From a virus (lineage: Duplodnaviria; Caudoviricetes): a DNA stretch of 64,000 nucleotides. The notes below the pieces were generated by a model, which did no database searches, had not been told where the DNA came from, and saw only the letters and a list, made by a program, of their open reading frames with translations. Shown here one piece after another: positions 14,098 through 30,832 of this stretch. Location: IMG/VR virus record IMGVR_UViG_2756170246_000001, positions 4,509-68,508 of that record. One strand, written 5' to 3'. A program made the position numbers and the translations under genes. Every line of letters begins with the position of its first letter. Within the stretch, counting starts at the first letter, position 1.

Positions 14098-15567
14098 TCA
14101 GGCCTCAAAATATTCCAGGCGATCGAGCAGAATTGTCGCGTTCGTCAACGTGTCGATCGACGCCATGCTTGTGAGAGGCAATTTCGTATCGGTGTTCTTC
14201 GCCGTCGCGTTGGCCTGCCCGTCGGTGTAGGTGAGACGCGGCGCCGCAAACACCATCGCCTGGCTGTTCTTGGCGGTGCGGATGTTGATGTTGGTTGCCG
14301 TCCCGGCGAAGAGCTTCGCCAGCAATGCGTTGGAGCCGAAATAGGTGCCCATGGTGACGGTGACGTCGACGGAGCCCTTTCCGATGTCCTCGGCGCCGAC
14401 AAGACCGTCGGACCGGATGCCACCGATCATGCGCAAATTGTTCTTGATGGTGATGACGGACGATTCGATGAAGTTCGGACCACCGACCGGCGTCCCGTTC
14501 TCCGCGATGCGGCCGACATTGACCGCCGCCGACATGATCGCATTGGTTGTCGCCGCATCGGGGGAGGCATCCAGCGAGGTGGTATCCTGGGTGCCGGTCA
14601 TGCCGGCGAAGGTCATCGTCCAGGTGGTGACCTGCTCCTTGACGAAGTTGAAGACGCCCTGATCGACCACCATGCCGCGCTGCGCGATGTAGGTTGGAAC
14701 CGTCTGGTCCATGAAACCGCGTTCCAGCGTGTTACCCAGCGTGAGAAGACCGTTCTTCAGCTGGTCGCCGAACCAGACCTTGATCGTCTTCGAGGTGCCC
14801 GCATCGGTCGTCCAGCCCGTCGGCAGATTGTCGAGGGTGATCGCATGCGCGGCGATCGCCGTGATGCGAGCCCAACCATTGCAGACCGCTGTGGCGAACT
14901 TGTCGATCGTTGCGGTGCCGCCAAGCTTCAGCCATCCGCCGACGTTGAGGCCGAGCGTGGTGAAGTCGAGCGATGCCGACGTCAGGCTGCTGGCGGCCGC
15001 GGCGATATCGCCAGAGGCGCCCTGGAAGCCAACCACCTTCATGCGTGCTGCCGCTGGCGGGGCGGCTTCATCGGTGATGCCCGAGCCGACAAATGCGGGA
15101 ACCGTCGCGGACCCGGTCGTGCACTTGAAGACGCCATTGTTGCCGGCGACGCCAAAATCGCTGAACCGCACCAGTTGGCCGGCAACGAAGGCATCGCCAG
15201 TCGTGACGGTGGCCACGGTGCCCGAAGTGGCGAGCCCGGTGATGACACTATCAGCGGTGCCGTCGTTGTCACGGAACGGCGTGTTGTCCCAGGTGCTGCA
15301 GAACAACGATTCCAGCCAGTCCGAGAACGGCGAGCCATTCGGTGGCCAGGAAAGCTCACCGTTGATCGGACCGTCGTTCATCTCGTTGACCTTGATCGGA
15401 TCCGAATTCATGCGGTCCGACCGGATCTCCTCAGAATTGACGAAGGCCGGCGCGAAGCGAAGCGTCTCGCCCTTGAGGCGCACGGTGCGCATCCGGGGTG
15501 TATTTGGTGTCGTTCCGAGCGTGACCTCGCGGACCGAGGACACGCGAACTCTGTTTGCGTCCGACAT
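14098..15567 (-). CDS. Major tail tube protein
   Basis: Start MSDANRVR with GGAGA RBS; SEEIRSDRM..D motif; 489 aa with an internal beta-rich insertion; upstream of the chaperones. Confidence 0.8.
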   Translation of the reverse strand: MSDANRVRVSSVREVTLGTTPNTPRMRTVRLKGETLRFAPAFVNSEEIRSDRMNSDPIKVNEMNDGPINGELSWPPNGSPFSDWLESLFCSTWDNTPFRDNDGTADSVITGLATSGTVATVTTGDAFVAGQLVRFSDFGVAGNNGVFKCTTGSATVPAFVGSGITDEAAPPAAARMKVVGFQGASGDIAAAASSLTSASLDFTTLGLNVGGWLKLGGTATIDKFATAVCNGWARITAIAAHAITLDNLPTGWTTDAGTSKTIKVWFGDQLKNGLLTLGNTLERGFMDQTVPTYIAQRGMVVDQGVFNFVKEQVTTWTMTFAGMTGTQDTTSLDASPDAATTNAIMSAAVNVGRIAENGTPVGGPNFIESSVITIKNNLRMIGGIRSDGLVGAEDIGKGSVDVTVTMGTYFGSNALLAKLFAGTATNINIRTAKNSQAMVFAAPRLTYTDGQANATAKNTDTKLPLTSMASIDTLTNATILLDRLEYFEA

Positions 15568-15699
15568 GACATTTCTCCATGGCAAAGAGCGCCGCGGTCA
15601 GGCCGGGCGGTGGTTGATCGGTTGCGTGGATGGTCGAGACGCGGCAGCGTTTCTCGGCTATATTGCCGATCCAGAGACCGACAATTCAGGACTAAGACG

Positions 15700-15984: not shown

Positions 15985-16175
15985 GCTTGCTCGGCTGGCA
16001 TTTCGGCCTGCTTGGATTTCGCAGACTTCGGCGCTGACGGCGCCTGCAGGAAGCCGCGTTCGGTGAGACCGCCCACGGGATGCGGCGAGAGATCGGTGTC
16101 GTCGGGGATCTCGTCGCCGGCCTTGAAGCGCTGGACCCGCGTGTTGAACGCTTTCAGAACCTTGAGCATGGTCAT
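15981..16175 (-). CDS. Small hypothetical virion-region protein
   Basis: 64 aa; ATGA-coupled to the upstream gene. Confidence 0.65.
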   Translation of the reverse strand: MTMLKVLKAFNTRVQRFKAGDEIPDDTDLSPHPVGGLTERGFLQAPSAPKSAKSKQAEMPAEQA

Positions 16176-16582
16176 TCGTCCCTTTGCCAGTTGATGGTTG
16201 CGGTCATGGCGTAGTAGTTCGCCTTGTATTTTCCGGCTTCACCGGCACCGAGCGAAGCCTCACGGAAGATCACCGTTCCGATCTCCATGCCCCGGAAGAG
16301 ATCGATCAGCTGTCCGGCGAGCTCACGCGCCTTCCGGGTGCCGATGTTGTTCCTGGTCATGACGTTCAGGTAGAGCTGGCCAACCTCGCGCCATAGGTTT
16401 GCGGAACGCGTCTCCGCACCGATCGACGCCTGATCGAAGAAATCGCCGAAGATCTCGACGAAGACGAAATGGGCGGGATCGTCGGGGAGATCGTCGGGCA
16501 TGTTCTCGAAGATCAGCGGCGTCGTCGTCCATTGAGCGGTGAGATACTGCTCGATGGTGTCGTAGGTGGTGAGGCTGGACAT
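16172..16582 (-). CDS. Tail terminator-like protein (DUF4128-like)
   Basis: Position before the tube gene; G..KARELAGQLIDLFRG motif typical of terminators. Confidence 0.65.
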   Translation of the reverse strand: MSSLTTYDTIEQYLTAQWTTTPLIFENMPDDLPDDPAHFVFVEIFGDFFDQASIGAETRSANLWREVGQLYLNVMTRNNIGTRKARELAGQLIDLFRGMEIGTVIFREASLGAGEAGKYKANYYAMTATINWQRDE

Positions 16583-17202
16583 CAGAGCGCGTTGATCACG
16601 AGGGCTGGATAGGTCAGCGCGGTACCAGCGGCACGGCGTTTGGTCGTCCGCTTGAGGCGGTACGGCGCCAGCGGAGATATGCCGCCGGGCACCTCCACAT
16701 ACTTCATCTCGATCTTGAATGCGGCGCCGAAACGCGCGCTGAGAGCGTTCTTGGCGGCATCGAAATGACGTCTCCCCGGGCCGTTGTAGCCGGTTTCGAT
16801 CTTGCGAGTGGATGGGTAGGGGTTGAAGATGATGACCTCCGCATCCGGCCGCAGCTTCGAAAAATCCGTCGCCACTGTGCGCCCGCCGACGATGACCATG
16901 AATGACCCCGCATACCTTCCGGTCCGACGCGGGCTGCGCTTCACCAACTCGGCCTTGGCCGCGTTGATCACCAGAGGCCAGTTCGAAAACACGTAGAGGA
17001 TGGAGCCCGGGACCTGGACCGTCTCTTCGGCCGCTCCTTCAACGCTGTTGACGAAGCGCGTGTACTGCGGCGATGCACCCGCTGCAATGGCTTTGGCGAG
17101 CTCGGCGCGCGCAAACTTGGCCAGCGCCGCACTGATCGCGGCTGGCTCCATGCCGGCCGTGGCAAGCTTCAGGTCGCGTTCGAAGGTGTCGAAGCGGGCC
17201 AT
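16582..17202 (-). CDS. Neck/tail completion protein (HK97 gp10-like position)
   Basis: Start MARFDTFERDL at 17202 coupled to the upstream stop; SPRRTGRY...FNPYP.TRKIE.G motif. Confidence 0.65.
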   Translation of the reverse strand: MARFDTFERDLKLATAGMEPAAISAALAKFARAELAKAIAAGASPQYTRFVNSVEGAAEETVQVPGSILYVFSNWPLVINAAKAELVKRSPRRTGRYAGSFMVIVGGRTVATDFSKLRPDAEVIIFNPYPSTRKIETGYNGPGRRHFDAAKNALSARFGAAFKIEMKYVEVPGGISPLAPYRLKRTTKRRAAGTALTYPALVINAL

Positions 17203-17465
17203 CAGCGGGCGCCCAGAAAGGTTCGCAAGGAGCCGGCCAGCAAGTTCGCCAAAACCTCGCTGCAGCCGGTCGTGCCCATTATGCACGCGCTCTCGGGCAG
17301 CACGCCGGTATAATCGGGGAACTCCACTTCGAACATCTTGCCGTCTTTCGAGGAGATGGTCACAGTGAATGGCCCCTCGGGCGCCTCGATGCGCTCCATC
17401 TCGATGCCTTCGAGGAAAGCCACCTTGAGCGGGCGCCGCGCCGAAAGATCGACAACGTCCGCCAT
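17202..17465 (-). CDS. Hypothetical protein
   Basis: MADVVDL...; TGATG overlaps on both sides. Confidence 0.55.
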   Translation of the reverse strand: MADVVDLSARRPLKVAFLEGIEMERIEAPEGPFTVTISSKDGKMFEVEFPDYTGVLPESACIMGTTGCSEVLANLLAGSLRTFLGAR

Positions 17466-17818
17466 CACCCACCAACCATCAGTTCGATGCGGACCACGAC
17501 GTTCTGCACCCGGATATGCTTCGGGAACTCGACGTTGCGTACCTTGCCGGCCTGCACGATCTTATCATCCTTGCGAATTGGCAGCCTGAACTGCGCCAGG
17601 TTGACATCGGTCGGGCTCAGGATGACGCGCGACCATGTCTGATCGATCTGACCGACCAGTTCTTCCGCCTTCAGCGGCCGGATCGAAGCGCGGACATCGG
17701 CATCGAACGGGATCTGGGTCGAGTTCGGGCCCAGTGTCAGTCGACGCAGCACAACATCCTCGCCGGCATCGAGCAGCGCGGCGTCGAGGTCGGCGATGAG
17801 CGAGTCCGGATCGGTCAC
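17465..17818 (-). CDS. Head-tail joining (stopper, gpFII-like) protein
   Basis: GTG start (TDPDSLIADLDAALLDAGEDVVLRR); size and position. Confidence 0.6.
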   Translation of the reverse strand: MTDPDSLIADLDAALLDAGEDVVLRRLTLGPNSTQIPFDADVRASIRPLKAEELVGQIDQTWSRVILSPTDVNLAQFRLPIRKDDKIVQAGKVRNVEFPKHIRVQNVVVRIELMVGG

Positions 17819-18228
17819 CGCGCCACCATTCTCGCGGAAAGCACCGTGCTGCCCGCATAGGTGCCTGTCGACACCACCTTGAGCCGCATGCGGTCGGTGA
17901 TGAGGCCGTCGACGGCGGTGTCGTCGGCCAGTGCGCCGTCGGTTGGCGTCACCTGTGTCGTCTTCGGTGTCAGCGCGGAGAGGTTGAGCAGCGCGACCTC
18001 GGATGCGGTGCCGAACAGGACGCAGGCGACGTCGTACCAGGTCGTGGCCTGATCGGCGGAACATTGCACATAGGCGCGGATCGTGCTGCCACCGGAGCCA
18101 TAGGCGAGCCGCAGCTGCAGCAACGCGGACTGCATGCCGTCGAGTTCGATGATGGCATCACCGATCAAGGTCTGCGCCGTGGTGATCGTGAGATCGCCAA
18201 GGTTGAACGTACCCGGGTTATCCATCAT
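17815..18228 (-). CDS. Hypothetical virion protein
   Basis: MMDNPGTFNLGDL...; ATGA overlap; beta-rich. Confidence 0.65.
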   Translation of the reverse strand: MMDNPGTFNLGDLTITTAQTLIGDAIIELDGMQSALLQLRLAYGSGGSTIRAYVQCSADQATTWYDVACVLFGTASEVALLNLSALTPKTTQVTPTDGALADDTAVDGLITDRMRLKVVSTGTYAGSTVLSARMVAR

Positions 18229-18887
18229 GCCCCCATCGTGTTGCGGAAACGGGTGAGCTGGCCGGCGACGACGTCGGGGACCGGCCCCTCGGTCGATTGC
18301 CCGGGCACGGAACCCACCCAATAGGTTTGCTCGACGCGCCGGACATCCGGAATGAGAACGACCTCGGATTTCAGAGAGGGATCACGTTTCCGCTCGAACC
18401 AGAGCAGTCGCATGAAGTCCGTCGCGGCCTGCTTCAGATCCTCGGGGATCGTGGCGAAGCCGGCGGCGTAGGTGACCACGATCTTCCTGGCGATCCACAC
18501 CGTCGGCTGGTCGATGCGCAGTCTGGATACCAGCCCCGATTCCGGATCGACGAGATAATCGGTGTCGACCACGGTTTCGGTATCTTCGACAAGGCTCGCG
18601 ATCTCGACGTCATGCCGGCGCGCCAGGATCAGCGCGTCGGGGAAGTCGTAGAACCCGAAATCCTGCCGGAAGGTCTGCGTCACGGTTTCGCGATGCAACG
18701 TTGGTGGCGATCCCGCGCCGATGGCGATGCCACACTCCGACATGATCGCGGCGGCGACGCGCCTTTCCATAGAGCGAAGCGTGGCGTCCTGACCGTTGCC
18801 GGTGACATTGGTGGCGGCGCGCATCTCGTCGAGCGTCAGCAGCGTCAGATCCGTCGCCGGCGTCGTGATGGTCAGGAGGGATTTCAT
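18225..18887 (-). CDS. Head-tail connector (gp6/gp15-like adaptor)
   Basis: LLTLDEMRAA...I..ECG and VVTYAAGFATIPEDLKQAA motifs. Confidence 0.82.
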   Translation of the reverse strand: MKSLLTITTPATDLTLLTLDEMRAATNVTGNGQDATLRSMERRVAAAIMSECGIAIGAGSPPTLHRETVTQTFRQDFGFYDFPDALILARRHDVEIASLVEDTETVVDTDYLVDPESGLVSRLRIDQPTVWIARKIVVTYAAGFATIPEDLKQAATDFMRLLWFERKRDPSLKSEVVLIPDVRRVEQTYWVGSVPGQSTEGPVPDVVAGQLTRFRNTMGA

Positions 18888-19681
18888 CAGTCGCTCGGGC
18901 TGGTTGAGGCGTTGGTGAGAGAGCCGGTCGGCGTGAAAGCGCCGCCTGTTCCTTTGTTGGTCGCGAAACTGCTGGCATCCCCCGAAAAGAAGATCGCCGG
19001 TGCTGTTCCAGTCGGTATAGAACCATCGCTGCCAAGAAAGACCGGCTTGCCGTCAGCCTCCACAAATTTGGCGATTTTCGCCGGGTCGGTAAGGTCCAGG
19101 TACTGCCCCGGTGCGAAATAGAAATCCACGACGTCACCCTTCGGGATGTACCCGTCAGCGGCGTTTCCGAACGCCGTGAATATGCCGCTATAGTCGACAT
19201 CGAAAGCGTCGTGGGCGTCGTTCACGGTCAGGACTGAATGGTCTATCAGCGCGCCATTAACCGCACATTCGAATAGCTTTTGCCCGGCTGGAAAATTCGT
19301 ATCCCATGCGATAAGCAGATTCATCCACCCAGAGAGCGGGTACAAGAATGATGTGTTCGGGAAGAAACTGAACTGGTTGGTGAAGTCGGCGTCATTGAGG
19401 TTCAGGATCATGTCCTGCGCCACGAGATTGGGGTCGAAGGGCCAATCCAGTTCGAAGTTGTATCCGGCATTCGTCGCCAGAAAACGGAAATCACTCCCGG
19501 TCTCAGCCGTCTTCCACCAAACAGATAATATGCCTCTGCTTGGCGTCGAAATTCCAGCCAAGGGAGCGCTGCTGACCAGTTGGGCCGAGCCATCGAAATG
19601 CACAGCCTGCGCCACATATGGCGCACCACCCCCGCCCGCACCGATATTCGCCGCGCTGGCGATGGCGCCGGGACCGCGCAT
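18887..19681 (-). CDS. LamG/concanavalin-like domain protein (head fibre/decoration candidate)
   Basis: AVHFDGS, ILSVWWK, W.NLLIAWD, VVDFYF pattern; lower GC than neighbours. Confidence 0.55.
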   Translation of the reverse strand: MRGPGAIASAANIGAGGGGAPYVAQAVHFDGSAQLVSSAPLAGISTPSRGILSVWWKTAETGSDFRFLATNAGYNFELDWPFDPNLVAQDMILNLNDADFTNQFSFFPNTSFLYPLSGWMNLLIAWDTNFPAGQKLFECAVNGALIDHSVLTVNDAHDAFDVDYSGIFTAFGNAADGYIPKGDVVDFYFAPGQYLDLTDPAKIAKFVEADGKPVFLGSDGSIPTGTAPAIFFSGDASSFATNKGTGGAFTPTGSLTNASTSPSD

Positions 19682-20110
19682 TTAGGCGGCGACCTGGTAG
19701 CCGGAACAATGCCAATGGTTGGCACCGACGCGGACGAGATACAGCACCGCGAATTGCTTCGCGGTCACCAAAGTTTCAGCCGTATCGACGGTGACCCCGG
19801 CGGCAAACAGGATGGTCACCGCCCCGGCACCGGCCTGCTCGACCTCGAATGCATTCGGAGCGCCGTCCTCGAAACTGCCATCTGCATCCGTCGGGATGAC
19901 GACCGAACTGGCGCCGTCGTTCATCATGCGGATGCGGGCACCTCCATCGGAGATCCGCACCTTCCGCGAGGTACCCTCATGCTCGATGATGCGGACACGG
20001 TTGGAGAGGTCGCGCAGCTGGACGAGGATCTTCACGCCGTTCTTGATCACCTCGACCAGTTCGGAGCCATCAAGACCGGCCATCGTTACCTCCAATGCTC
20101 CGAAATCCAT
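19682..20110 (-). CDS. Fibre/decoration-like protein
   Basis: C-terminal EQAGAGAVTI..AAGVTV...AKQFAVLYLVRVGANHWHCSG resembles phage fibre terminal modules. Confidence 0.55.
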   Translation of the reverse strand: MDFGALEVTMAGLDGSELVEVIKNGVKILVQLRDLSNRVRIIEHEGTSRKVRISDGGARIRMMNDGASSVVIPTDADGSFEDGAPNAFEVEQAGAGAVTILFAAGVTVDTAETLVTAKQFAVLYLVRVGANHWHCSGYQVAA

Positions 20111-20697
20111 GGCTCATCGAGTTCATCCATCTTTGGCCGGCCGTGGAAGTAAACGATCCGGGTGGCGCCGAGTCCGTGATCACGGACGCAGCCCTTGTAT
20201 GACTCGGCCTGGCCCGGAAAGACGTCGTCGATGAAGACGTGCGGCTGTTTCCGCATGTGCTCCATGTCGTCGCCGCCTTGATAGGACCACCAGACGCCGT
20301 CGTTGCCAGCCGGGACCAACTGGACCCCGGTGCAGGCGCGGTGAGGCGCATAGGGGTCGCGCGGCAGCGCAATGGTGTCCGAGGTCAGCGCGTACTCCGC
20401 CATGGCATCACAGTTGCCGGTGACCACGGTATCGAGGCCGACCAGGATCATCGGTTCGCCGAGGAGGTAAGGATCGATCAGGGTGCCGTAATCAGGGATT
20501 CTCTCCCCTGTCAGCTCCTGCTCGATGCCGGCCGAGAACTCGCGCTGCCGTTCGGTGAAGCAGACGAAGCGAAACGGCACCGTCAGATTGCGGGTGAAAC
20601 CGCGATGGAGCCGCTCCACCCACTCCTCGGTGTAGCACCGGCTGAATTCGAACGACGCCTCGTTGGCGTCCCAGAAGACACAGGCGACGGTCAGCAT
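20086..20697 (-). CDS. Putative glycosyltransferase (GT-A fold, GT8-like)
   Basis: MLTVACVFW...Y..EWVERL.RG..RNLTVPFRFVCFTE; LVGLDTVVTG (DxD-like position); C-terminal IVYFHGRPK. Confidence 0.7.
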   Translation of the reverse strand: MLTVACVFWDANEASFEFSRCYTEEWVERLHRGFTRNLTVPFRFVCFTERQREFSAGIEQELTGERIPDYGTLIDPYLLGEPMILVGLDTVVTGNCDAMAEYALTSDTIALPRDPYAPHRACTGVQLVPAGNDGVWWSYQGGDDMEHMRKQPHVFIDDVFPGQAESYKGCVRDHGLGATRIVYFHGRPKMDELDEPWISEHWR

Positions 20698-20702
20698 GTG
20701 GC

Positions 20703-20951
20703 TTACATGCCCCTCAGTATCTCGTTGAAAGCGACACGTGCCGACGAGATCACAACTGCTTGCCGATTGGCCGCAACCTGTGCCGCTATTTCGCTGTCGA
20801 CGACACCGCCGGCATCCCACCAAACCTGTTCTGCATAGGCCTCCGAGACGAAGCCACCGCAAGATTTCCGCGCGGCAAGATCCCAGCACGCTTGTCTAAT
20901 CTCGGACTCACTGGCGTTGACGGGGTTCCAGTCCTTGACCCGTTTCTTCAT
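20703..20951 (-). CDS. Hypothetical protein
   Basis: 82-aa ORF filling the gap, ATGA-type coupling to the acyltransferase gene. Confidence 0.55.
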   Translation of the reverse strand: MKKRVKDWNPVNASESEIRQACWDLAARKSCGGFVSEAYAEQVWWDAGGVVDSEIAAQVAANRQAVVISSARVAFNEILRGM

Positions 20952-21466
20952 TTACAGAGCCTCATCCGCCGCGACCGGTAGCCATCCGGGAAAGCACCGG
21001 TCCAGCCATTGCGCCGCCAGACCATGTTCGGCGGCACGTTCTTAGTCACCACCGCGCCGGCGGCGACAAAGGCGCCGGCCCCGATGATGACGCCCGGCAA
21101 GATGGTCGCATTGGCGCCGATCGAGGCCCCATCCTCGACGCGGATCGTGCAGCCGGCGGCGATCACCTCGTGATCGATCCCGTCCTTGGTGGCATCCGGC
21201 CACATGTCGTTGCAGAATACCGCGCCAGGCCCGACGAAAACACTGTCGCCGATATCGACACCATGCGGGATCGAGACACCGTTCTGGATGTGGCAGTCGT
21301 TGCCGATCGAGGCGCCATCGATCTGCGCGCTGGCGCCGATGATGCAATCCTTGCCGATGCGTGCACCGCGGATCACGCTGGCGAACTGCCAGATCTTGGT
21401 GCCTTCACCGATTTCGACTATGGAAGCATCGATATGCGCCAGCGGGTGGATCATGCCGGCATCCAT
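20948..21466 (-). CDS. Hexapeptide-repeat (left-handed beta-helix) acetyltransferase, WbpD/WxcM-like
   Basis: IHPLAHID...IGEGTKIWQFASVIRGARIGKDCIIG...IGDSVFVGPGAVFCND...GASIGANATILPGVIIG..AFVAAGAVVTKNVP. Confidence 0.9.
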   Translation of the reverse strand: MDAGMIHPLAHIDASIVEIGEGTKIWQFASVIRGARIGKDCIIGASAQIDGASIGNDCHIQNGVSIPHGVDIGDSVFVGPGAVFCNDMWPDATKDGIDHEVIAAGCTIRVEDGASIGANATILPGVIIGAGAFVAAGAVVTKNVPPNMVWRRNGWTGAFPDGYRSRRMRLCK

Positions 21467-22239
21467 TCCATGGGCCTGTAGAGCACCAGGTCGTTGCCGT
21501 CGGCGGCACCCCAGAAGCGTTCGGGCCGCCCCGTCCAGACCACGACCTTCTCGCGGTAGGGATAGTCGGTCTCGCGCGACCGGATCGGCGAGCCGTCATA
21601 CGGTGCCTCACCCATCGGCCGCCAGGTCAGACAATCTTCCAGCGACCGGAACGGGAAGCATGGGATCGCGCTGCCCGGCGTCGCGTTGATGATCTCGATA
21701 TCGAGCAGCAGAGCCAGGGCCTGCCAGCCAGGCATGAACTGACCTTCGAAGACAGGCAGATCATTGAGGCTGTTGTAGTCGTTGTGCCCATGGGTGCGGC
21801 CGTCGACGACGCGGCAATCGAACCCCGTCAGGATGAGCCGTGCGGCACCCATGAGCTGCAACAGGCAGGACAGGATGTGTCCGCTGGAGGCCTGCACATG
21901 ATGGGAGAGCCCGCCGATGCGCGCCGTCAGATCATTGATGTCGATGCAGCGGATCCTGTCGCCGAGCCGGTTCTTGGAATGGCGGTTCGCGCAGATGACC
22001 GGACCCGGCCAGCCCTCGATCAGATCGCCATGCTGCTCGCACCAAGAGTTGTCGGTGAAGTAGAGGATATCCTTGGCCGTCGCGATCGGGCGGACCTTGC
22101 GGCACCCGCTGTTGATCGCGGCGAAGCGGTGGCCCTTGAGCAGCGCGAGATCGATTTCCGCGTGAGAGGGACCGCCACCGATGAGAACGACGGTCTGCCC
22201 TTCAAGCGAACGGTCCGGCGCCCAGTATTCCACGCTCAT
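21451..22239 (-). CDS. Nucleotide-sugar transferase-like protein (GT29/Maf-DUF115-like Rossmann fold) with a C-terminal DUF551-like tail
   Basis: VVLIGGGPS...AIN...YFTD..W; SSGH....L..LMGAARLILTGFD; IINATPGSAIPCFP; then WRPMGEAPYDGS. Confidence 0.6.
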   Translation of the reverse strand: MSVEYWAPDRSLEGQTVVLIGGGPSHAEIDLALLKGHRFAAINSGCRKVRPIATAKDILYFTDNSWCEQHGDLIEGWPGPVICANRHSKNRLGDRIRCIDINDLTARIGGLSHHVQASSGHILSCLLQLMGAARLILTGFDCRVVDGRTHGHNDYNSLNDLPVFEGQFMPGWQALALLLDIEIINATPGSAIPCFPFRSLEDCLTWRPMGEAPYDGSPIRSRETDYPYREKVVVWTGRPERFWGAADGNDLVLYRPMEWMPA

Positions 22240-22244
22240 CAGGC

Positions 22245-22646
22245 TTACGAGGCGCGGCGGTTCGCTTCGATCTCGATCGCCTTGATGGCGTCATCCTTGC
22301 TTCGGATCGGCTCGTCGGTCAGCTGGACGGCTAGCGCGCGAAGGTCAACGAACGACAGTTCGGCGACATCGTCCGGGATAACGACCTCGGAGCGGGCCTT
22401 GAGCTTGTCGGCTTCGGCCTGCAGCCTGGCGGCCTCAGCGGCCGCAGCGGCGGCGGCTTCGTCAGCTTCGGTCGATTGCACCTCCGTAACGGATACCGGC
22501 GGAGTGATATCCTCGGCCCAGCCGCGATCGATGTATTTGCGGCCATAGGCCTCGTCGCGGCCGTGGAACTCGAGCTCCTGGCCGATCTTGAATTCCGGCC
22601 GGCCGAGCGGCTTGGCGGTGAACTTGATCTTCATCTTGCGCTCCAT
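22245..22646 (-). CDS. Hypothetical head-associated protein with Rho-N/HeH-like C-terminus
   Basis: LSFVDLRALAVQL...SKDDAIKAI. Confidence 0.6.
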   Translation of the reverse strand: MERKMKIKFTAKPLGRPEFKIGQELEFHGRDEAYGRKYIDRGWAEDITPPVSVTEVQSTEADEAAAAAAAEAARLQAEADKLKARSEVVIPDDVAELSFVDLRALAVQLTDEPIRSKDDAIKAIEIEANRRAS

Positions 22647-22700
22647 TGGGGGAAGTACGGCCCCGGCTCATCGCCGGGGCGCATTGCGGTGGATGTCAGA

Positions 22701-23234
22701 TCAATCGACGATCGCCGATTCCAGGGTCTCTTTCTGGTTCTTCGGGTCGTAGAGCATGTAGAGCACGCAGCCGAGCTGCGCGTTGGTGCCGACATCGCCG
22801 ACCGAGGCGCGGATGCAGTCATAGCCGCCATTGGCGTCGAGCATCTCGGCCTTGACGTCGATCAGCACGATGGCGGCCTGTTCCGCGAGATCGCTGTTGG
22901 TCCAGGTGTTGGTCGAGAAGGTGTCATGCGTCGCCGGCACGTCCGACGTCGATTTCGTGTAGGTGCCGACCGCCAGCAGGTTCGTGGCGGCCTGCTTCTT
23001 GTCGACGCGGGTGATGTTCAGCGCCTTGTTGGTGCCGAAGGCGACGTCGGTGCCCTGCAGGAGGGTAACGGTGGGATCGTCGCCGGCGGTGCCGACAGCC
23101 TTGTAGAGGATGATGAGGCAGCCGCCGTAGCCCTTCAGGCTGACGACGTCGGCGGTGTTGGCGGCAGTGTTCATCGCCACGGGCAGGAAGCCCTGGGCGA
23201 AATTGAACTGCTCCGCAGCGTGCTGGTTGAACAT
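22701..23234 (-). CDS. Capsid decoration/accessory protein (putative)
   Basis: Directly downstream of the capsid gene; beta-rich, 177 aa. Confidence 0.6.
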   Translation of the reverse strand: MFNQHAAEQFNFAQGFLPVAMNTAANTADVVSLKGYGGCLIILYKAVGTAGDDPTVTLLQGTDVAFGTNKALNITRVDKKQAATNLLAVGTYTKSTSDVPATHDTFSTNTWTNSDLAEQAAIVLIDVKAEMLDANGGYDCIRASVGDVGTNAQLGCVLYMLYDPKNQKETLESAIVD

Positions 23235-23288
23235 GTGCTTGGCTTTCTCAGAGTTGTGCGCCGTGGCGGCGCCGTGTTGCGGGGAAAA

Positions 23289-23310
23289 CCGGCCGGATCA
23301 TTCCGGCCGG
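23289..23310 (-). terminator. Intrinsic terminator-like hairpin after the capsid gene
   Basis: CCGGCCGGA-4nt-TCCGGCCGG perfect 9-bp stem followed by TTTT on the minus strand. Confidence 0.6.
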
Positions 23311-23323
23311 CGTTCTGGCGCTA

Positions 23324-24781
23324 TCAGCGCGCCTGCAGGGCGACGGCCCAGGAGAGGTCGTTGCCGCCGTTCTGGCGGGTGATCGTGCTCGACCATGCGG
23401 GCTGACCGTTGACGCGGAAGATGAAGCGGAACGCGGTCAACGCCTGGTCGAAATAGAGATGGATCGAGGTGTCGGACTGGATGCCGCCCGATTTGGTCAG
23501 AGCCCAATACTGGTTGAAATCGGCGAAGATGATGTCGCCGAGATCGCCGATGGCGGAACATGCCTCGATCGGAACAACGGGACGGCCCTTGAGGGTGCCA
23601 TACGCCGACGCCGACAGGCCGCCCGGCGGCAGATAGGCCGGAACCGGATTGGTGCCAGGCAGCAGCGAGGTTGCCCCGCTGGCCTGGAATGCCATGCCGG
23701 CGAGCTGCGGTTCCAAATCCTGGTTGATCAGCCAGACACCATTGCGGCGCCACGGCGCGTACATGCGGGCATGCATGGCCTCGATATTGGCCATCCAGAT
23801 GGTATCGGCCGGCTGCGAAGTCGCCTTCGAAACCTGGATGACCGAAGCGCCGACTGCCGAATAGCCGGGGATGATGCCAAGCGGCTGGCCGACACCGGTG
23901 CCGGCGATGATCGCTGTGTTGAGCTTCGCCGCCATCTTGCCAGGCGCCTTGGCGCGCAGCCAGGATTCCAGACCGGAGGCGTCGGACAGCAGTTCGTCGC
24001 TGATCGGCACCAATGCCATTAGCTTGGAGAGACGCAGGGCACCCATTTCGAAGGCAGGCTTGGAAGCCGACGGCGCCTGGGCTTCACCTTCCCAGTAGAC
24101 CTGGACGCCACCGGAGGTCTGCCAGGGGGTGGTCTCGTCCTTCGGGATCATCATCGAGTTGCCATCGGTGACGAGCGGGGTGCAGCGGTTCAGCAGGTTT
24201 TCTTCCGCCTGCACCTTCTGCCAGATCTCGGTCGAGAACGATGGAGGCACCAGGAAGCCGCCATCGGTACCGACGCCTTCACCGCCATAGGTCGTGGCGA
24301 CGTTGCGCAGCTTGGTGACGCTGTCGTTGTCGATCTGCTTGTAGTGCTGCATGACCGTCTGGGCGAAGGCGCCGAACGACTGGAAGCCGTGTTTCGCGTT
24401 GTCTAGGCGCGGCTGCGCCGGGATGACGGTGCGACCGCCATTGCCGCCGCCGGCACCACGGTTCTGTGGTTCTGCGGTGGAACGACGCCCGGCACCCTGC
24501 GGCGCCAGCGCCTTGCGGGCGTTTATCTGTTTGTCGAGCTTCTCGATTTCGACACGGTTGGTCTCGATCGTGGCGAGATCCTCGTCGGAAAGATCGACCT
24601 CGTCGGTGTCGGCTGCATCGATCAGCGCCTGGGAGGCGTTGAACATCTCGAGACGACGATCCTCGAGCGCGGCGAGCGCCGAGGCGGCATCCATCAGGAT
24701 CGGGCCGAAGTAGGCGGCGCCGACAAACGCGGCGCCGAGGGCGAGCAAGCCACTGCTGGCCCGCACAATGTGCTTGGTCAT
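23324..24781 (-). CDS. HK97-family major capsid protein with N-terminal delta/scaffold region
   Basis: GGFLVPPSFSTEI, VYWEGEAQA, LMALVPISDELLSDA, GDIIFADF...TAFRFIFRVNG motifs; AGGAGA RBS. Confidence 0.93.
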   Translation of the reverse strand: MTKHIVRASSGLLALGAAFVGAAYFGPILMDAASALAALEDRRLEMFNASQALIDAADTDEVDLSDEDLATIETNRVEIEKLDKQINARKALAPQGAGRRSTAEPQNRGAGGGNGGRTVIPAQPRLDNAKHGFQSFGAFAQTVMQHYKQIDNDSVTKLRNVATTYGGEGVGTDGGFLVPPSFSTEIWQKVQAEENLLNRCTPLVTDGNSMMIPKDETTPWQTSGGVQVYWEGEAQAPSASKPAFEMGALRLSKLMALVPISDELLSDASGLESWLRAKAPGKMAAKLNTAIIAGTGVGQPLGIIPGYSAVGASVIQVSKATSQPADTIWMANIEAMHARMYAPWRRNGVWLINQDLEPQLAGMAFQASGATSLLPGTNPVPAYLPPGGLSASAYGTLKGRPVVPIEACSAIGDLGDIIFADFNQYWALTKSGGIQSDTSIHLYFDQALTAFRFIFRVNGQPAWSSTITRQNGGNDLSWAVALQAR

Positions 24782-24874
24782 TACATTCTCCTATCGTTTG
24801 GGGAACAGCGGCTGCGCCGCATTGAAACGCTTGCCCAAGGCGCAATGCGGGCACCACCGGCTTTCGCCGAGGAT

Positions 24875-25555
24875 CTACTTGGCCAGCGCTGCCAGTGCTG
24901 CCACCGCGGCGTTGCGGCGGGGGCGCAGGGCGACGGGAAGATTCTTGAACATGGCGGGCCGCTTCACGGAGGCGGCGACCTTGAGATTGCCGACCATGCG
25001 GTCAGCGAACTTGTTGGCGACAGCATCCTTGCCGCTCATCCAGGTTTCATCCTTCATCCACTTCTTCACCGTCGCGGCGTCATTGCCGGTGCGGGAGACG
25101 TAGACGTCGACGACTGAGCCGTTGGCGGCGTCGAGCAGGCTGGCATAGGACCGCATGTCCTCGGCGCGGCCGTAGCAGCCGCCGGTGCAGTCATGGATCA
25201 TGATGAAGGCGCCCTCGGCGATCTCGATTTCGTCGCCGGCCATCGCGATGAACGACGCCGCAGAAGCCGCCAGCCCATCGACATGCACGATGATCTTGGC
25301 GGCATGGCCGTTCAGCAGCGTGTACATCGCCTTGCCATCGAAGACGTCGCCACCTTCGGAGTTGATCCGGACGTCGATCGTGGTGACGGCGCCAAGCGCC
25401 TTCAGATCGTCGGCGAAGATCTTGGCCGAGATGCCGTCGCCCCAGAAGTCCTGGCCGATCGGGCCGTAGAGGAAGATTTCGCCGCGGCCGCCGCCCCTGT
25501 TGATCATGCGGTAGCCCTCCGGCGTCTTCACGCCGGCGCGATTCTTGACAGGCAT
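24875..25555 (-). CDS. ClpP-type (S14) head maturation protease
   Basis: EIFLYGPIG, VRINSEGGDVFDG, VDGLAASAASFIAMAG, IMIH, DETWMSG.DAV...FAD. Confidence 0.92.
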   Translation of the reverse strand: MPVKNRAGVKTPEGYRMINRGGGRGEIFLYGPIGQDFWGDGISAKIFADDLKALGAVTTIDVRINSEGGDVFDGKAMYTLLNGHAAKIIVHVDGLAASAASFIAMAGDEIEIAEGAFIMIHDCTGGCYGRAEDMRSYASLLDAANGSVVDVYVSRTGNDAATVKKWMKDETWMSGKDAVANKFADRMVGNLKVAASVKRPAMFKNLPVALRPRRNAAVAALAALAK

Positions 25556-25565
25556 GGTGGCTCCC

Positions 25566-26618
25566 TCAGTCGATGGTGAGAAGGCGGTGCTCGACGCCGG
25601 CGGCGTCGACGACGGAGATAAAGCGGAGATTTCCGATATCCTTGGCGGTGAGGCCCGCCGGTTCGGATCCGTCGAACGCGATTGCCGGACCAGCCGGGCC
25701 TGGCTCGCCGGCCTCACCGCGGTCGCCTTTCAGACCGCGAGCGCCGGCGAGGCCTTGAGGTCCTGGTGGGCCGATATCGCCGCGCTCACCAGCTTGGCCG
25801 GCCTCGCCAGGCATACCCTGCGGACCTTGCCGACCTTCGGGTCCAACAACGGTGCCGACGATTTCCTTGCTGCCATCCGTGTAGGTGAGAACGAGGCGGC
25901 TTTCGTCGTCGATCAGGCTCGATACGATGGAACGGCCAGCGATGCCGTCGCGACCGTCACGGCCAGCGTCACCGCGTTCACCGGTGGCGCCGCGCGGACC
26001 TTCTGGACCGATCTCACCGGCGGGGCCGATGGCGCCGGGCTCGCCGCGGGCACCCTCGACACCCTGGGGGCCGGCGTCACCACGCTCGCCACGCGGGCCT
26101 ATCTCGCCGGGCTCACCACGCGGGCCAATGGCGCCATCAATACCGGGGGCGCCCTGTTCGCCGCGAGGACCGGGTTCGCCGCGCTCGCCGACAGGGCCAA
26201 TCTGGCCATGCTCGCCGGAGGGACCGGGCAGCCCATCGTTGCCAGCGGCGCCTTGTGGACCTGCCGGGCCGATATCGCCCTTTGGTCCGGGTAGACCCTG
26301 GTCGCCTTGGCGGCCGTCGATTCCTTGCGGTCCAGCTTCGCCGCGCGGTCCGGGCTCGCCCTGGGCCCCGATTGGACCCACGGCACCCTGTGGACCAGCA
26401 TCACCACGATCGCCGGGGAGACCACGCTCACCCTGCGGACCGACGGCGCCGGCGATACCGGGCAGGCCGTCGCGACCGTCGCGCGGAAGCCGCTGTTCGA
26501 GCGCGACGAGGCGGCCGGCGAGACCCTTCATTCCCGTCCAGATATCGGCGAACGGGTTCGTTTGCGGCTTCTCCGGCGGCGGGGTGATCGCCCGGTTCTG
26601 GATCGGCGCCTTAGACAT
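25566..26618 (-). CDS. Collagen-like (Gly-X-Y) protein
   Basis: About 61 uninterrupted G-X-Y triplets, a short globular spacer (LIDDESRLVLTYTDG), then about 18 more triplets; start overlaps the portal stop. Confidence 0.88.
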   Translation of the reverse strand: MSKAPIQNRAITPPPEKPQTNPFADIWTGMKGLAGRLVALEQRLPRDGRDGLPGIAGAVGPQGERGLPGDRGDAGPQGAVGPIGAQGEPGPRGEAGPQGIDGRQGDQGLPGPKGDIGPAGPQGAAGNDGLPGPSGEHGQIGPVGERGEPGPRGEQGAPGIDGAIGPRGEPGEIGPRGERGDAGPQGVEGARGEPGAIGPAGEIGPEGPRGATGERGDAGRDGRDGIAGRSIVSSLIDDESRLVLTYTDGSKEIVGTVVGPEGRQGPQGMPGEAGQAGERGDIGPPGPQGLAGARGLKGDRGEAGEPGPAGPAIAFDGSEPAGLTAKDIGNLRFISVVDAAGVEHRLLTID

Positions 26619-27957
26619 GAGCGGGCTCCGATGCCAGGATCCGGTTGAAATCGGCCATGGCATCCGCAGCGGCCTGGTCGGGGACCGGCTGATCGAGCGG
26701 CGGTCCGCCGTTGTGACCGATCGGCGGAGGAGGGGTCTCACCGATCTTGTCGAGTGTCGTGAACTGCGACTGCATCACATGGATATCGCCGTCGGGACCA
26801 AGCGTGTTCTCGTCCTCGAGCTCCAGGATCTTGTTCGGCGAGTAGGCCCCGACGTACTGCATGCCCTTGTAGAATTCCATGCGGGACTTCATGTCGCCGC
26901 GCAGCAGGGCATTGACGTTCATCTTGGTGTAGAGCCCCTGGCGGTTCTGGCCGAACAGCTTGAAATCGGCCTCATCCTCGAAGCGCTTCGCCCATGGCGT
27001 GATGCTGTCGACGACGACCTCGATCGCCTGATGCTCGATGTTCGAGAATGTTGCCCGCAGCAGATGCATGATCTTGTGCGGCGGCACCCCGAACCAGCGG
27101 CAGATCTCCTCGACGAGGAATTGGTGCGTCTCCAGCAGCTGCGTCTGTTCCGCGTTCAGCCCGATCGTCGAGATATCGGCGTCGTTGTCGAGAAACGCCG
27201 TCTTGTTCGCCCGGTACGGCCCCTTGTAGAGCTGCTCGAACTCGGCGCGCTGCTTCTCCAGCCCCTTCGGGGAGAGTCCCTTCTTGTTCTTGACAACCGT
27301 CGTCGGGGTCGCCCCGTTGCCAAAGAATGAGGCACCAAACATCTGCGCGGCCTTCGCCCAGCCAAGCGATTGTGCCGCGTAGTCGATGACATTGACGCCA
27401 ACAACGCCTTCGCCGAAGCCGCGGAGGTGGAACATATCGGCGGCTTCGATCTCGATGCCGTCGCCGCCACCAGGCCCGTTGCTGACCTCGTAGAAGAGGA
27501 TGCCGGTGTCGGGGTCACGGCAGACCTTGACGCGATCAGGATGGATCGGCCACAGCGCGAACGGGCGGCCGAGCTGGTCGCGCTCGATCTCGGCGTATCC
27601 GTTGCCCCAGCGCAGCGCCCAGTGAAGCATCGTCTCCCGGAACTGGAACGACGACCATTCCGGGTTCGGCCGCTTGTAGAGCAGCCAGTCGACCGGGTTC
27701 TTGGCCTGGATCTCGGCACCGTTACCGCCATCCTTCAGTGCATGCCAGGGCAGCACGGCAACAGTCTGGGTGAGGAACCTGAAGCAGGCCCAGACCGCTG
27801 GGATCGTCAGCGCGGAATCCGGAGTGATGAGAACGCCGGCCAGCGTCCGCGGTGTCGAGGGGACGCGCCGCTGGTTCGGCCAGCGCGGTTCCGTCGAAAC
27901 GCGCTGCGCGAGGATCGAGATCCCTTGCGCCATGGCGTTGCGGAAACCTTCAAGCAT
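26611..27957 (-). CDS. HK97-family portal protein
   Basis: AL.IPAVWAC, PNPEWSSFQFRE, GNGY..I.R, MFHLRG, EEICRWFGVPPH..., SNIEHQ; start MLEGFRNA overlaps the terL stop. Confidence 0.93.
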   Translation of the reverse strand: MLEGFRNAMAQGISILAQRVSTEPRWPNQRRVPSTPRTLAGVLITPDSALTIPAVWACFRFLTQTVAVLPWHALKDGGNGAEIQAKNPVDWLLYKRPNPEWSSFQFRETMLHWALRWGNGYAEIERDQLGRPFALWPIHPDRVKVCRDPDTGILFYEVSNGPGGGDGIEIEAADMFHLRGFGEGVVGVNVIDYAAQSLGWAKAAQMFGASFFGNGATPTTVVKNKKGLSPKGLEKQRAEFEQLYKGPYRANKTAFLDNDADISTIGLNAEQTQLLETHQFLVEEICRWFGVPPHKIMHLLRATFSNIEHQAIEVVVDSITPWAKRFEDEADFKLFGQNRQGLYTKMNVNALLRGDMKSRMEFYKGMQYVGAYSPNKILELEDENTLGPDGDIHVMQSQFTTLDKIGETPPPPIGHNGGPPLDQPVPDQAAADAMADFNRILASEPAHV

Positions 27958-29821
27958 ACTGGTCAAAATCCTGATCTGCGTCGGCGAGCCGCTGTTCGTA
28001 GCGCTCCCGCATCTCTTGCCAGCGCGGATGCCGGTGATCGGCGAGGATCGCCGCCTCTTCGGCACGCGTTGGCTCAGTTTCGGCGTCTGTTTCGTCGTCT
28101 CGATCTGCCAGCTGATCGTAGACGGACCGTGATGACTGCGGATTGAGCCCCATCAGCACCTTCGCGTGTAGTACCGCCATCAGCGGATCGATCTTGGCGG
28201 ATCCTGAGACCTGTTTGTCGATCGAGACGGCGTTGCCGTGCTGAACGGTCTTCGCGTTGCCGACAGCGAAATTCATCAGGGCGCCGCCATTGTGGACGAT
28301 GACACCGCCGGCGAGATCCCGCTCGGTATCCTTGATGGCACCATTCAGCTTCCAACCCTGCGGGATGCCGATGATCCGATCCTTATCGATCGGACTGTTC
28401 TCACCGGTTTTCGGATGCTGCCCAGTCAGAGCCTTCGTGATCGCGGCAACGCCGAAGGAGTCGACGCCGATCGCGTTTTCCGATGCCAGCAACCCGGAGG
28501 CCTCGACCTCGATGACGTGGTCGGCGAGTTCGTAGACATCCTCGCCAGGCAGCTTGACGAAGGTGAGTTCTTTCAGATCGGCGAGCTCGTCGAGCTTGGA
28601 CGCGATTTCGGTGCGGCGCTGTTTCACGATCTCGTGCGCCCAGGCATGCGTCCAAAGCAACAGCTTGCCGGTCCCGATCTCGCGGCCGAGGACGGCGAGG
28701 CCAAGCAAGTCGTCGAGGCCGCCACCGTCAATCCCGATCGTGATGACTTCGGATCGCCGGATCAGCTCCTGCAGCGTGAGCGTCTTGTCGACGTTTGATG
28801 CGCCGGTTTTAGGGTTGCCGAGCCAGAATTCGGCACCGGCCCAGCTGCCGGACTTCAGCCCAAGACCGGCCTCGATGTTGAAATGCTTCGAAACGAAGAG
28901 GCTGAGCGAGGCGGTCCCCTCGAGCTCCTTCTTCTTCAGTTCGGTGGTCAACCACTGAAGATCGACGGAGTAACCGAGACTCGGGTTCGGGATGTGCCAG
29001 GTCTTAGGATCGCGCCAGGCCTGCGCCTTGGCCATGGCGTCCGGATATTCATAGATCAGAGGCAGCGAGGTCGGATCGTCGATCTTCCCGTCGCGAATGC
29101 CGCGGTGGTAGAGCAATTTCTGACTGAAGACCCCGGTCGGAGGGTCATCGCTTTGCGTCGTCGCGTAGATCGTGAAGCCTTCCGGCCTTGATGCCTGCGA
29201 ACCGGTGACTTCCGACAGCACGTTTGCCGATGAGGCCTTCTTGCCGAAGAGCCAGAGCTCGTCGACGAAGGAGCTGATCGCCTTCTGCCCGCCAACGACA
29301 TCGGCGTCGGCTGATTTCACCGCCAGGACGGAGCCGTCGAGCCGGTTGGTGATTTCCCGGGTGGAATCGCTAGGCTTGAAGCGCTTGAAGAGCGCGTTGT
29401 CCTCGGTGATCATGCCGTGAGCCGGCAGGAAACTGTTGTCGGCGACGTCCTTCGTCGGCGCCAGGATGAGATATTCCCCCATCGCGCGGAGGTTCATGAT
29501 CAGCGCGGTGACCATGATGCCGGCCGCGATCGTCGATTTCGCGTTCTTCTTGCTGATCAGCACCAGGAATTCCCGGATCAGCTGGCGGCCAGCTACACTG
29601 TCGTGGGCACCGAAGACCACCCAGACGAGATCGAATATCCACTGCGGACAGACCTCGCCCAAGGTCGGCTTGCCAATGATGTCCTTCACCTTCAACCGCT
29701 TGAAGATGCGCAGCGCCTTCTCGGCGCGCGCCACATCGATAGGCAGGCCATCCGGGATGAGGCTCCGGCCGGCGATGATGCGGGTCTCCCAGTCGAGACA
29801 CGCCGTCGACCATTGCAGCAT
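27950..29821 (-). CDS. terL: Terminase large subunit
   Basis: LISKKNAKST Walker A, FVDELW Walker B, GIDGGGLDDL nuclease, KIDPLMA. Confidence 0.93.
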   Translation of the reverse strand: MLQWSTACLDWETRIIAGRSLIPDGLPIDVARAEKALRIFKRLKVKDIIGKPTLGEVCPQWIFDLVWVVFGAHDSVAGRQLIREFLVLISKKNAKSTIAAGIMVTALIMNLRAMGEYLILAPTKDVADNSFLPAHGMITEDNALFKRFKPSDSTREITNRLDGSVLAVKSADADVVGGQKAISSFVDELWLFGKKASSANVLSEVTGSQASRPEGFTIYATTQSDDPPTGVFSQKLLYHRGIRDGKIDDPTSLPLIYEYPDAMAKAQAWRDPKTWHIPNPSLGYSVDLQWLTTELKKKELEGTASLSLFVSKHFNIEAGLGLKSGSWAGAEFWLGNPKTGASNVDKTLTLQELIRRSEVITIGIDGGGLDDLLGLAVLGREIGTGKLLLWTHAWAHEIVKQRRTEIASKLDELADLKELTFVKLPGEDVYELADHVIEVEASGLLASENAIGVDSFGVAAITKALTGQHPKTGENSPIDKDRIIGIPQGWKLNGAIKDTERDLAGGVIVHNGGALMNFAVGNAKTVQHGNAVSIDKQVSGSAKIDPLMAVLHAKVLMGLNPQSSRSVYDQLADRDDETDAETEPTRAEEAAILADHRHPRWQEMRERYEQRLADADQDFDQYA

Positions 29822-30267: not shown

Positions 30268-30269
30268 GC

Positions 30270-30391
30270 TTTTTCGGTCACTTTCGGCAAATCAGCCGGA
30301 TTTTGAGGGCGGCAGAAAAAATTTCATGAACATGAGCCCCGAGCGGTTGGACCCCCGGATCGACCCAGAGATCGAGACCCCCCCCCCCCGG
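30270..30391 (-). other. Putative cos/packaging region
   Basis: Non-coding gap between HNH and terS with a G12 run (C run 30378-30389 on +) and a T6 tract; HK97-like phages place cos here. Confidence 0.5.
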
Positions 30392-30715: not shown

Positions 30716-30818
30716 TACACGCTGACCTTTGATGACGGCTGTACCCCGCAGACGATGAGCTCGCGCAAGCGAGCGCTCTTCTCTTCTACGGTTCTTCAGA
30801 TAGCACTGACCTTGAGAA

Positions 30819-30832
30819 CGTAGAGCTCTACG
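30819..30832. promoter_or_regulatory. Perfect 14-bp palindrome CGTAGAGCTCTACG upstream of the late operon
   Basis: Direct reading; near-identical copy at 49343-49356. Confidence 0.55.

Follow-up and report, generated by a model that had tools for sequence, protein, structure and literature searches.

A conserved acetyltransferase-glycosyltransferase cassette in the head operon of a Mesorhizobium-type prophage is a candidate system for virion glycosylation

A cassette of putative sugar-modifying genes was found in the late structural operon of a temperate prophage represented by IMG/VR record IMGVR_UViG_2756170246_000001, of which a stretch of 64,000 nucleotides was analysed (positions 4,509 to 68,508 of the record; hereafter the window). 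The window corresponds to positions 187283-251282 of contig C1 in a Mesorhizobium-type genome of 7.45 Mb and 52 contigs that is 100% complete by marker genes, and the closest named relatives of the window proteins are from Mesorhizobium. An initial annotation had read four open reading frames (ORFs), here called A, B, C and D in their order on the minus strand, as genes for virion glycosylation and acylation, and all four are present at 20086-22239. We favour, with a probability of roughly 55%, the interpretation that the cassette is a late-expressed, soluble cytoplasmic module by which the phage glycosylates proteins of its own virion, probably in the head. This interpretation rests on the identity of the enzymes and on an unusually consistent gene neighbourhood.

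The conserved core of the cassette consists of B and D. B matched the Hexapep family (E-value 1.5e-25) and, below the cut-off, the NeuD/PglB/VioB subfamily (3.1e-23), and reached no NCBIfam equivalog cut-off. Its alignments to nucleotide-sugar N-acetyltransferases of the Protein Data Bank (PDB) start at residue 1 (E-values 1e-30 to 1e-21) and include the H. pullorum enzyme 7s3u (2.5e-30, residues 1-146, of the same size), the N-terminal domain of S. denitrificans FdtD (4mzu, 1.1e-29), WlbB (3mqg, 9e-21), which is the counterpart of WbpD, and QdtC (3fs8), all of which we take to act on 3-amino sugar nucleotides. The start of B at 21454 is consistent with these alignments, as its MIHPLA aligns with MIHKLA of 7s3u. 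B is thus a predicted left-handed beta-helix (LbH) nucleotide-sugar N-acetyltransferase of the QdtC/FdtD/WlbB type, which agrees with the WbpD-like enzyme proposed in the initial annotation. While B aligns over its full length with these enzymes, it differs from them in being encoded without O-antigen dehydratase, isomerase or aminotransferase genes and in being paired with a glycosyltransferase in phage head modules.

D matched phrog_1962, annotated as 'glycosyltransferase' (5.6e-37), with no Pfam family at E <= 0.1 (PF01501 was not reached) and no NCBIfam match; a distant fused relative, P0329, matched PF01501 at 9.8e-4, below the cut-off. The AlphaFold model of D (predicted local distance difference test score, pLDDT, 97.7) has a GT-A fold, and its top Foldseek matches, which happen to be protein-glycosylating enzymes, include glycogenin-1/2, AgtA (the Skp1 galactosyltransferase) and pneumococcal GlyE (E-values ~1e-6, template modelling (TM) scores 0.54-0.62). 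The D family profile also matched glycogenin (5.8e-6): of the glycogenin DAD motif, the second Asp pairs with the invariant D89 while the first is replaced by Gly in D, D144 pairs with the Asp of GGDQG, and H185-G186...K189 (HG..KP) lies opposite FLGQTKPW, its His being two positions out of register. D therefore resembles the GT8 enzymes glycogenin and S. pneumoniae GlyE and the GT8-like AgtA in fold (TM ~0.6), but has only 203 residues, carries GLD for DxD, falls below the PF01501 threshold and belongs to a mostly viral family that lacks a curated name. The model is best described as that of a GT-A, GT8-like, retaining-type glycosyltransferase of this unnamed family, which we have not filed as GT8 because only half of the DxD motif is kept and the Pfam model failed. 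The GT8-like assignment of the initial annotation stood for the fold, which is nearest to GT8 structures, but not at the level of the PF01501 gathering score. D has 851 relatives in a set of 5.8 billion proteins, with a typical identity of 55-64% across Alphaproteobacteria, 748 representatives in an exhaustive search and occurrences on 299 IMG/VR viral contigs; the nearest language-model clusters are 81-94% viral.

Conservation of the gene neighbourhood, a check that the initial annotation had called for, was strong. Of 107 loci retrieved from genomes and from viral contigs, 103 have room upstream of D, and B sits directly upstream in 95 of these, at a distance of at most 300 nt (mostly 0-70 nt); A is present in 42 of the 107. 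Loci of at least 8 kb (n=90), searched with a limited query panel, contained a structural gene on the same strand in 77 cases and were flanked on both sides in 43. At least four unrelated capsid lineages (phrog_10, phrog_29, phrog_247 and phrog_1328) carry the B-D pair in their structural modules. Type 1, that of the window, reads MCP(phrog_10)-g177-g133-B-D-A-adaptor, where MCP is the major capsid protein; type 2 (Henriciella) reads portal(phrog_146)-minor head-A-B-D-protease(phrog_530)-MCP(phrog_29); type 3 (Caulobacter) reads portal(phrog_145)-B-D-x-scaffold(phrog_206)-MCP(phrog_247); and type 4 reads portal(phrog_1216)-scaffold-MCP(phrog_1328)-x-B-D-virion protein(phrog_2941)-virion protein(phrog_3287). 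The window itself has the order A-B-C-D, while its closest sequenced relatives with available loci have B-D-A. Among phages with related capsids, the slot between g177 and the head-tail adaptor holds B-D-A in close relatives, A alone in many phages at 40-50% capsid identity and nothing in distant phages (capsid-g177-adaptor), and the cassette is therefore a mobile accessory module inserted at a fixed structural position, with the head-assembly block as its constant companion. In the Caulobacter-type backbone, a conserved protein of 183 amino acids (L021:8612-9163 and counterparts) always follows D, sometimes twice per locus; it has no family match and may be a further cassette component or an acceptor.

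A is tied to D by its co-location in the 42 loci, by gene fusion and by adjacency in a further phage. A PF01973 domain forms the C-terminal part of six long cluster representatives of the D family (P0247, P0250, P0297, P0343, P0356 and P0377), and in the lambdoid Citrobacter phage phiNP (L140, 5415-7252) an A-like and a D-like gene (phiNP_031/030) are direct neighbours, with the lysis genes on one side and terS on the other. The A-type protein P0072 has an additional C-terminal domain of ~200 amino acids, in which a VGADS motif is reminiscent of D. P1 PmgP, CcrSC gp515 and phiNP_029 were rejected as relatives of D (hhalign probability < 1%). The nearest relatives of A and D, 85% and 81% identical, lie on one 7.4-kb Logan contig. 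Against 50,697 cultured phage records, the cassette DNA showed no similarity and the D protein gave three weak matches (25-27% identity). A DNA search of 60 related genomes returned generic hexapeptide-repeat matches only, and there is therefore no close copy of the cassette among the species representatives searched; in an even class-wide sample of 300 genomes, matches to D were marginal only. No paper describing such a cassette in alphaproteobacterial phages was found in the literature which, together with the lack of a close relative among the cultured phage records, is in line with the novelty suggested by the initial annotation.

The cassette is embedded in one long late operon on the minus strand, running from ~30.3 kb down to 0.2 kb of the window (Table 1). 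As the initial annotation had stated, it lies between capsid and head-tail genes, with the terminase, portal, protease and capsid genes upstream and, beyond the adaptor, the tail terminator, tube (Phage_tube_2), tape measure and DUF2460/BR0599-type distal-tail proteins in that order. Its co-orientation and translational coupling were likewise borne out: A starts 5 nt past the g133 stop (read from the sequence), the A/B and B/C junctions are ATGA overlaps (-4 each), D starts 5 nt past the C stop, and E starts 2 nt past the D stop with GGAGG in front of it. A consensus pattern scan of 16000-31500 revealed no promoter-like or terminator-like signals above shuffled expectation. The start of D was placed at ATG 20697, where PHROG and homologue alignments begin; an alternative start at 20889, given by the mechanical ORF, was rejected as the alignments begin at 20697 and the longer ORF overlaps C in another frame. 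GC content at third codon positions (GC3) is 0.81-0.83 in A, B and D, as in the capsid gene. No membrane segment or signal peptide was found in A-D, and in the AlphaFold models the hydrophobic maxima map to core elements of the folds, namely the Rossmann core for A and the beta-helix for B.

The inclusion of C in the cassette, as initially proposed, was not upheld. A search of 5.8 billion proteins returned nothing but C itself, none of the Pfam, PHROG and NCBIfam families matched it, it had no counterpart in any of the related loci (0/107), and its GC content (57%) and GC3 (0.65) are below those of its neighbours (GC3 0.81). C is a lineage-specific insert, possibly not functional, outside the conserved cassette, and it looks like a recent insertion into the otherwise invariant B-D junction. 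The gene keeps its ATGA overlap with B.

Table 1 Features of the late operon around the cassette, with positions in the window.
Feature	Position	Strand	Basis or remark
Small terminase (terS)	29821-30267	-	Late operon
Large terminase (terL)	27950-29821	-	Late operon
Portal	26611-28065	-	Late operon
Collagen-repeat protein	within 25566-26741	-	Late operon
Head protease	24875-25717	-	Late operon
Major capsid protein, candidate acceptor	23324-24781	-	phrog_10, 8.8e-45
g177, small head-module protein after the capsid gene, possible decoration protein	22701-23234	-	Conserved with the capsid gene
g133, small protein directly upstream of A	22245-22646	-	Conserved in type-1 relatives
Gene A, 262 aa, predicted Maf/GT42-like transferase	21451-22239	-	phrog_4603, AlphaFold model
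Gene B, 168 aa, predicted LbH sugar N-acetyltransferase	20948-21454	-	Hexapep, PDB matches
Gene C, 82-aa ORFan	20703-20951	-	No family match
Gene D, 203 aa, predicted GT8-like GT-A glycosyltransferase	20086-20697	-	phrog_1962, AlphaFold model
Gene E, 133 aa, fibre-knob-like beta-sandwich, directly after D	19682-20083	-	PHROG and structure matches
Gene F, 264 aa, Ser/Thr-rich C-terminal tail, speculative acceptor	18887-19681	-	Sequence
Head-tail adaptor, downstream boundary of the accessory slot	18225-18887	-	phrog_442, 1.7e-16

This setting bears on whether the cassette instead alters a glycan of the cell envelope, with B and D making an N-acetylated amino sugar and attaching it to an intermediate of lipopolysaccharide (LPS) or exopolysaccharide (EPS), either undecaprenyl-linked or core, so as to convert the serotype or mask receptors. 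Such a change, serving to block superinfection or to stop progeny from re-adsorbing to debris, is in our view unlikely. The phage is temperate, the genome in which it sits encodes three DegT-type sugar aminotransferases, and the likely enzyme classes have envelope connections: LbH N-acetyltransferases of the WlbB, QdtC and FdtD type normally serve O-antigen pathways, GT8 includes LPS enzymes, Cst-II-type enzymes act on lipooligosaccharide, and PHROG places the family of D in its category 'moron, auxiliary metabolic gene and host takeover'. Classical conversion genes, however, adjoin int/att, and cassettes of this kind (gtrABC, oac type) encode membrane-embedded enzymes that are expressed in the lysogen, whereas A-D are soluble and are placed midway along the late structural operon, separated by gaps or overlaps of 2-5 nt and lacking a promoter signal of their own. 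The B-D pair, moreover, travels with head genes in the four or more unrelated structural backbones described above, and envelope remodelling that began late in infection would presumably have little time to act.

A matched phrog_4603, annotated as 'alpha-2,3-sialyltransferase' (2.6e-23), with no Pfam match and a score below the PF01973 (MptE-like) cut-off, a domain borne by many of its 143 homologues, including many at 29-50% identity. The best structural match of its AlphaFold model (pLDDT 92) is the central domain of the Magnetospirillum flagellin glycosyltransferase Maf (5mu5; VIA Z 14.6, 194 residues aligned), followed by Cst-II (VIA Z 13.1), with further matches to Cst-I and, at Z ~9, to GT29 sialyltransferases. 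The family profile also reached Cst-II (1.2e-3), with GGGPS of A aligning with GNGPS, SSG...GFD with TSG...GID, and N43 with the Asn of RCNQ; H150 and H152 are nearly invariant in the family. The likeness to Maf nonulosonic-acid transferases and to GT42 (Cst-I, Cst-II) therefore lies in the central fold, the GxGPS nucleotide loop and the SSG...G(F/I)D block. A differs from Maf in being a single domain: its residues 1-211 align to 253-517 of the 632-residue 5mu5 chain, the N- and C-terminal flanking domains of the three-domain Maf architecture are lacking, and residues 208-262 (~55 amino acids) form a small beta extension seen only in the nearest (Mesorhizobium) relatives. On the basis of profile and model, A is a predicted single-domain Maf/GT42-like transferase of MptE-like fold, which accords with the GT29/Maf-like Rossmann transferase first suggested. 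A-like proteins at 28-29% identity are encoded in late or morphogenetic regions of phage P1 (PmgO; L142, 3944-4606, an A-family protein), P7 (HdmB) and phiNP; these differ from A in having enterobacterial hosts and no B partner, and PmgO and HdmB are filed under 'putative morphogenetic function'.

The resemblance to Maf raises the question of whether A acts in a Maf-like manner on Ser/Thr of a host protein or other non-virion target, such as flagellin or pilin receptors or a defence protein, glycosylated late in infection. We consider this quite improbable. In its favour, besides the Maf match itself, A-like genes follow the tail genes in giant flagellotropic Caulobacter phages and occur as P1 PmgO, and a six-frame search of the host genome found no PF01973 protein. 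Yet A, with 262 residues against 632 in the 5mu5 chain, lacks the Maf N- and C-terminal domains, what accompanies the cassette throughout is the head module and not a host-interaction gene, and no result points to a specific host target.

Returning to glycosylation of the virion, we infer a scheme for the donor sugars, the order of the reactions and virion proteins as acceptors in which B, dependent on acetyl-CoA, would N-acetylate an amino-sugar nucleotide made by the host, D would move a nucleotide sugar, presumably the product of B, onto the acceptor, and A, a frequent third component beside the conserved core pair of B and D, would add a further sugar. The substrate of B must be drawn from host amino-sugar pools, because the phage lacks a partner dehydratase or aminotransferase. 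The host genome encodes three full-length DegT-family sugar aminotransferases, none of which was named by NCBIfam above its cut-off, and an FdtA search gave one borderline match only. It encodes no NeuB-type synthase, in a search that did match control genomes, which leaves A without a nonulosonic acid, and one strong KdsB-like cytidylyltransferase; the donor of A is for these reasons likely to be cytidine monophosphate-3-deoxy-D-manno-octulosonate (CMP-Kdo), the only obvious CMP-ulosonic donor. A Maf enzyme of C. botulinum reportedly transfers both Kdo and N-acetylneuraminic acid (Neu5Ac) (PMC11339370).

A more specific version of this scheme, which we regard as distinctly unlikely, has B N-acetylating UDP-2-acetamido-3-amino-2,3-dideoxyglucose (UDP-GlcNAc3N), D placing the resulting 2,3-diacetamido sugar on head proteins and A capping it with Kdo from CMP-Kdo. 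UDP-GlcNAc3N is the product of GnnA/GnnB for the 2,3-diamino-2,3-dideoxyglucose (GlcN3N) lipid A backbone, which is found in Mesorhizobium, Bradyrhizobium and relatives and not in Rhizobium/Sinorhizobium (PMC4103559, PMC5644692). Acidithiobacillus likewise makes this nucleotide sugar for a lipid A of the GlcN3N type. The hosts named for prophages with B-D (Bradyrhizobium, Mesorhizobium, Phyllobacteriaceae-type genera, Caulobacter and an Acidithiobacillales metagenome-assembled genome) fit this pattern, and Rhizobium leguminosarum, Sinorhizobium and Agrobacterium are absent from the same list. None of 23 Gfo/Idh/MocA genes adjoins the three DegT aminotransferases of the host genome, which is uninformative for GnnA/GnnB linkage as gnnA and gnnB of M. 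loti are unlinked (PMC5644692). If true, this version would explain why two genes suffice, why B and D are never separated and why the named hosts belong to GlcN3N-lipid-A lineages, and the virion would show envelope-type sugars built wholly from LPS precursor pools.

Further genes lie on either side of the cassette, and one of them, F, encodes a speculative acceptor. E has PHROG matches to the C-terminal parts of tail-fibre and virion proteins and Atlas structure matches to Mtd_N, collagen-fibre (tip) and DUF2793 proteins (TM 0.72-0.79) and, as a stand-alone protein in the head module, may be a head fibre or decoration. g177, for which a family search gave no match, is kept beside the capsid gene whether or not a relative has the cassette. 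The tail of F reads ...TPTGSLTNASTSPSD, F ending in ...TGSLTNASTSPSD, and an almost identical C-terminus is found on a 333-amino-acid protein of a Mesorhizobium jarvisii prophage (L025:9609-10610) that also bears A, B and D; no other protein shares such a tail. The GC3 of F is low (0.67), like that of C.

Expression data are compatible with co-transcription of the cassette and the structural genes during spontaneous induction. Three RNA-seq runs of one study on the same organism contained 43-98% of the sampled words of 19000-25000, and assembled RNA contigs (18900-21191 and 21206-24938) extend through the cassette into structural genes on its flanks. At 18929-19602 and 22448-23878, contigs of DNA and RNA from the same organism bridge the stretch with diverged or replaced sequence, which suggests that the genome holds a second, related copy of the prophage at another place, with short identical segments in common.

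Several observations weigh against virion glycosylation. The RNA evidence consists of assembled contigs that carry no strand, start or level and could include DNA carry-over, and uncovered parts mean nothing. With the limited query panel, 13 of the 90 loci had no structural gene. D has GLD for the GT8 DxD, so that the second Asp alone is kept. No acceptor signature emerged: the variable Ser/Thr/Gly loop of the capsid protein did not separate phages with the cassette from those without it, and Ser/Thr-rich C-terminal tails were not enriched in cassette loci (10/1415 ORFs, 0.7%) over cassette-less controls (2/309, 0.65%). Finally, the fold of A is held in common with pyrophosphokinases, its model matching the M. 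jannaschii 6-hydroxymethyl-7,8-dihydropterin pyrophosphokinase (HPPK) MptE (8sd5) at VIA Z 12.7 and thiamin pyrophosphokinase at Z ~9.

These last matches, together with one to SteA (VIA Z 11.4) and the filing of A homologues under Pfam 'MptE-like', would be expected if A were an MptE-type or thiamin-type pyrophosphokinase or a SteA-like regulator and the cassette made a phosphorylated or activated small molecule. This is very improbable, as the sialyltransferase-type motifs align (GGGPS/GNGPS and the SSG...GFD block), A-type domains are fused to a GT-A glycosyltransferase and there is linkage of A with a sugar N-acetyltransferase. That the cassette glycosylates bases of the phage DNA so as to evade restriction, an alternative raised in the initial annotation, is disfavoured to the point of being extremely improbable: phage GT-A enzymes that glycosylate 5-hydroxymethylcytosine exist, but such systems sit beside C5-methyltransferase and 5mYOX or ThyS-like genes (bioRxiv 10.1101/2023.12.21.572611), whereas the whole genome has no match to the C5-methyltransferase family PF00145, its only thymidylate synthase (ThyA) is on contig 6, outside the prophage, ten large early-region ORFs carry replication, recombination and partition domains only and no base-modifying domain, and the cassette adjoins head genes and not replication genes; a genome search for Tet_JBP also gave no match, but every control genome was missed too.

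The best-supported reading is that the cassette represents a form of phage self-glycosylation with other enzymes and in another host clade than that of mycobacteriophages. Mycobacteriophages of the Che8, Rita and Corndog type use phage-encoded soluble glycosyltransferases on their own structural proteins, the capsid being the documented target, and the capsid glycans of Che8 and Rita are made by phage glycosyltransferases (Freeman et al. 2023, Cell Host Microbe, as cited in PMC11256854). The likeness lies in the association of glycosyltransferase and structural genes. The system described here differs in its Gram-negative alphaproteobacterial host, in its predicted enzymes (an unnamed GT8-like GT-A glycosyltransferase, an LbH N-acetyltransferase and a Maf/GT42-like transferase) and in the lack of a Ser/Thr-tail acceptor signature. 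The position of the genes also differs: in the F1 phage Maravista the glycosyltransferases lie near the 3' end of the genome (PMC11256854) and not beside the capsid gene.

Two further structural genes of the window have unusual features. The collagen-repeat (GxY) gene occupies an unusual place between the portal and head protease genes; its mechanical ORF (25566-26741) overlaps the portal gene by ~130 nt, such that the real start is probably internal, and collagen-like sequence is found at the same place in the type-1 relatives L011 and L012. The tail tube protein (14098-15585, minus strand) is long, with 495 amino acids of which 19% are Ser/Thr, and the Phage_tube_2 match is confined to residues 251-456, leaving a large extra N-terminal domain.

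In the literature found, mycobacteriophages are the source of the experimental evidence that tailed phages glycosylate their virions. The compact, highly conserved cassette of two or three enzymes in the head operons of hundreds of uncultured and prophage alphaproteobacterial genomes suggests that self-glycosylation is widespread in phages of Gram-negative bacteria, and it suggests a probable biochemical role for a large unnamed viral GT-A family (phrog_1962) and for the family of P1 PmgO and 'alpha-2,3-sialyltransferase-like' proteins. As an inducible prophage of a cultured rhizobial strain, in which just three genes would have to be deleted, it offers a small and tractable system for asking what capsid glycans do outside an immune system, for instance whether they aid stability in soil, limit adsorption to debris or EPS or help to evade lectin-like defences.

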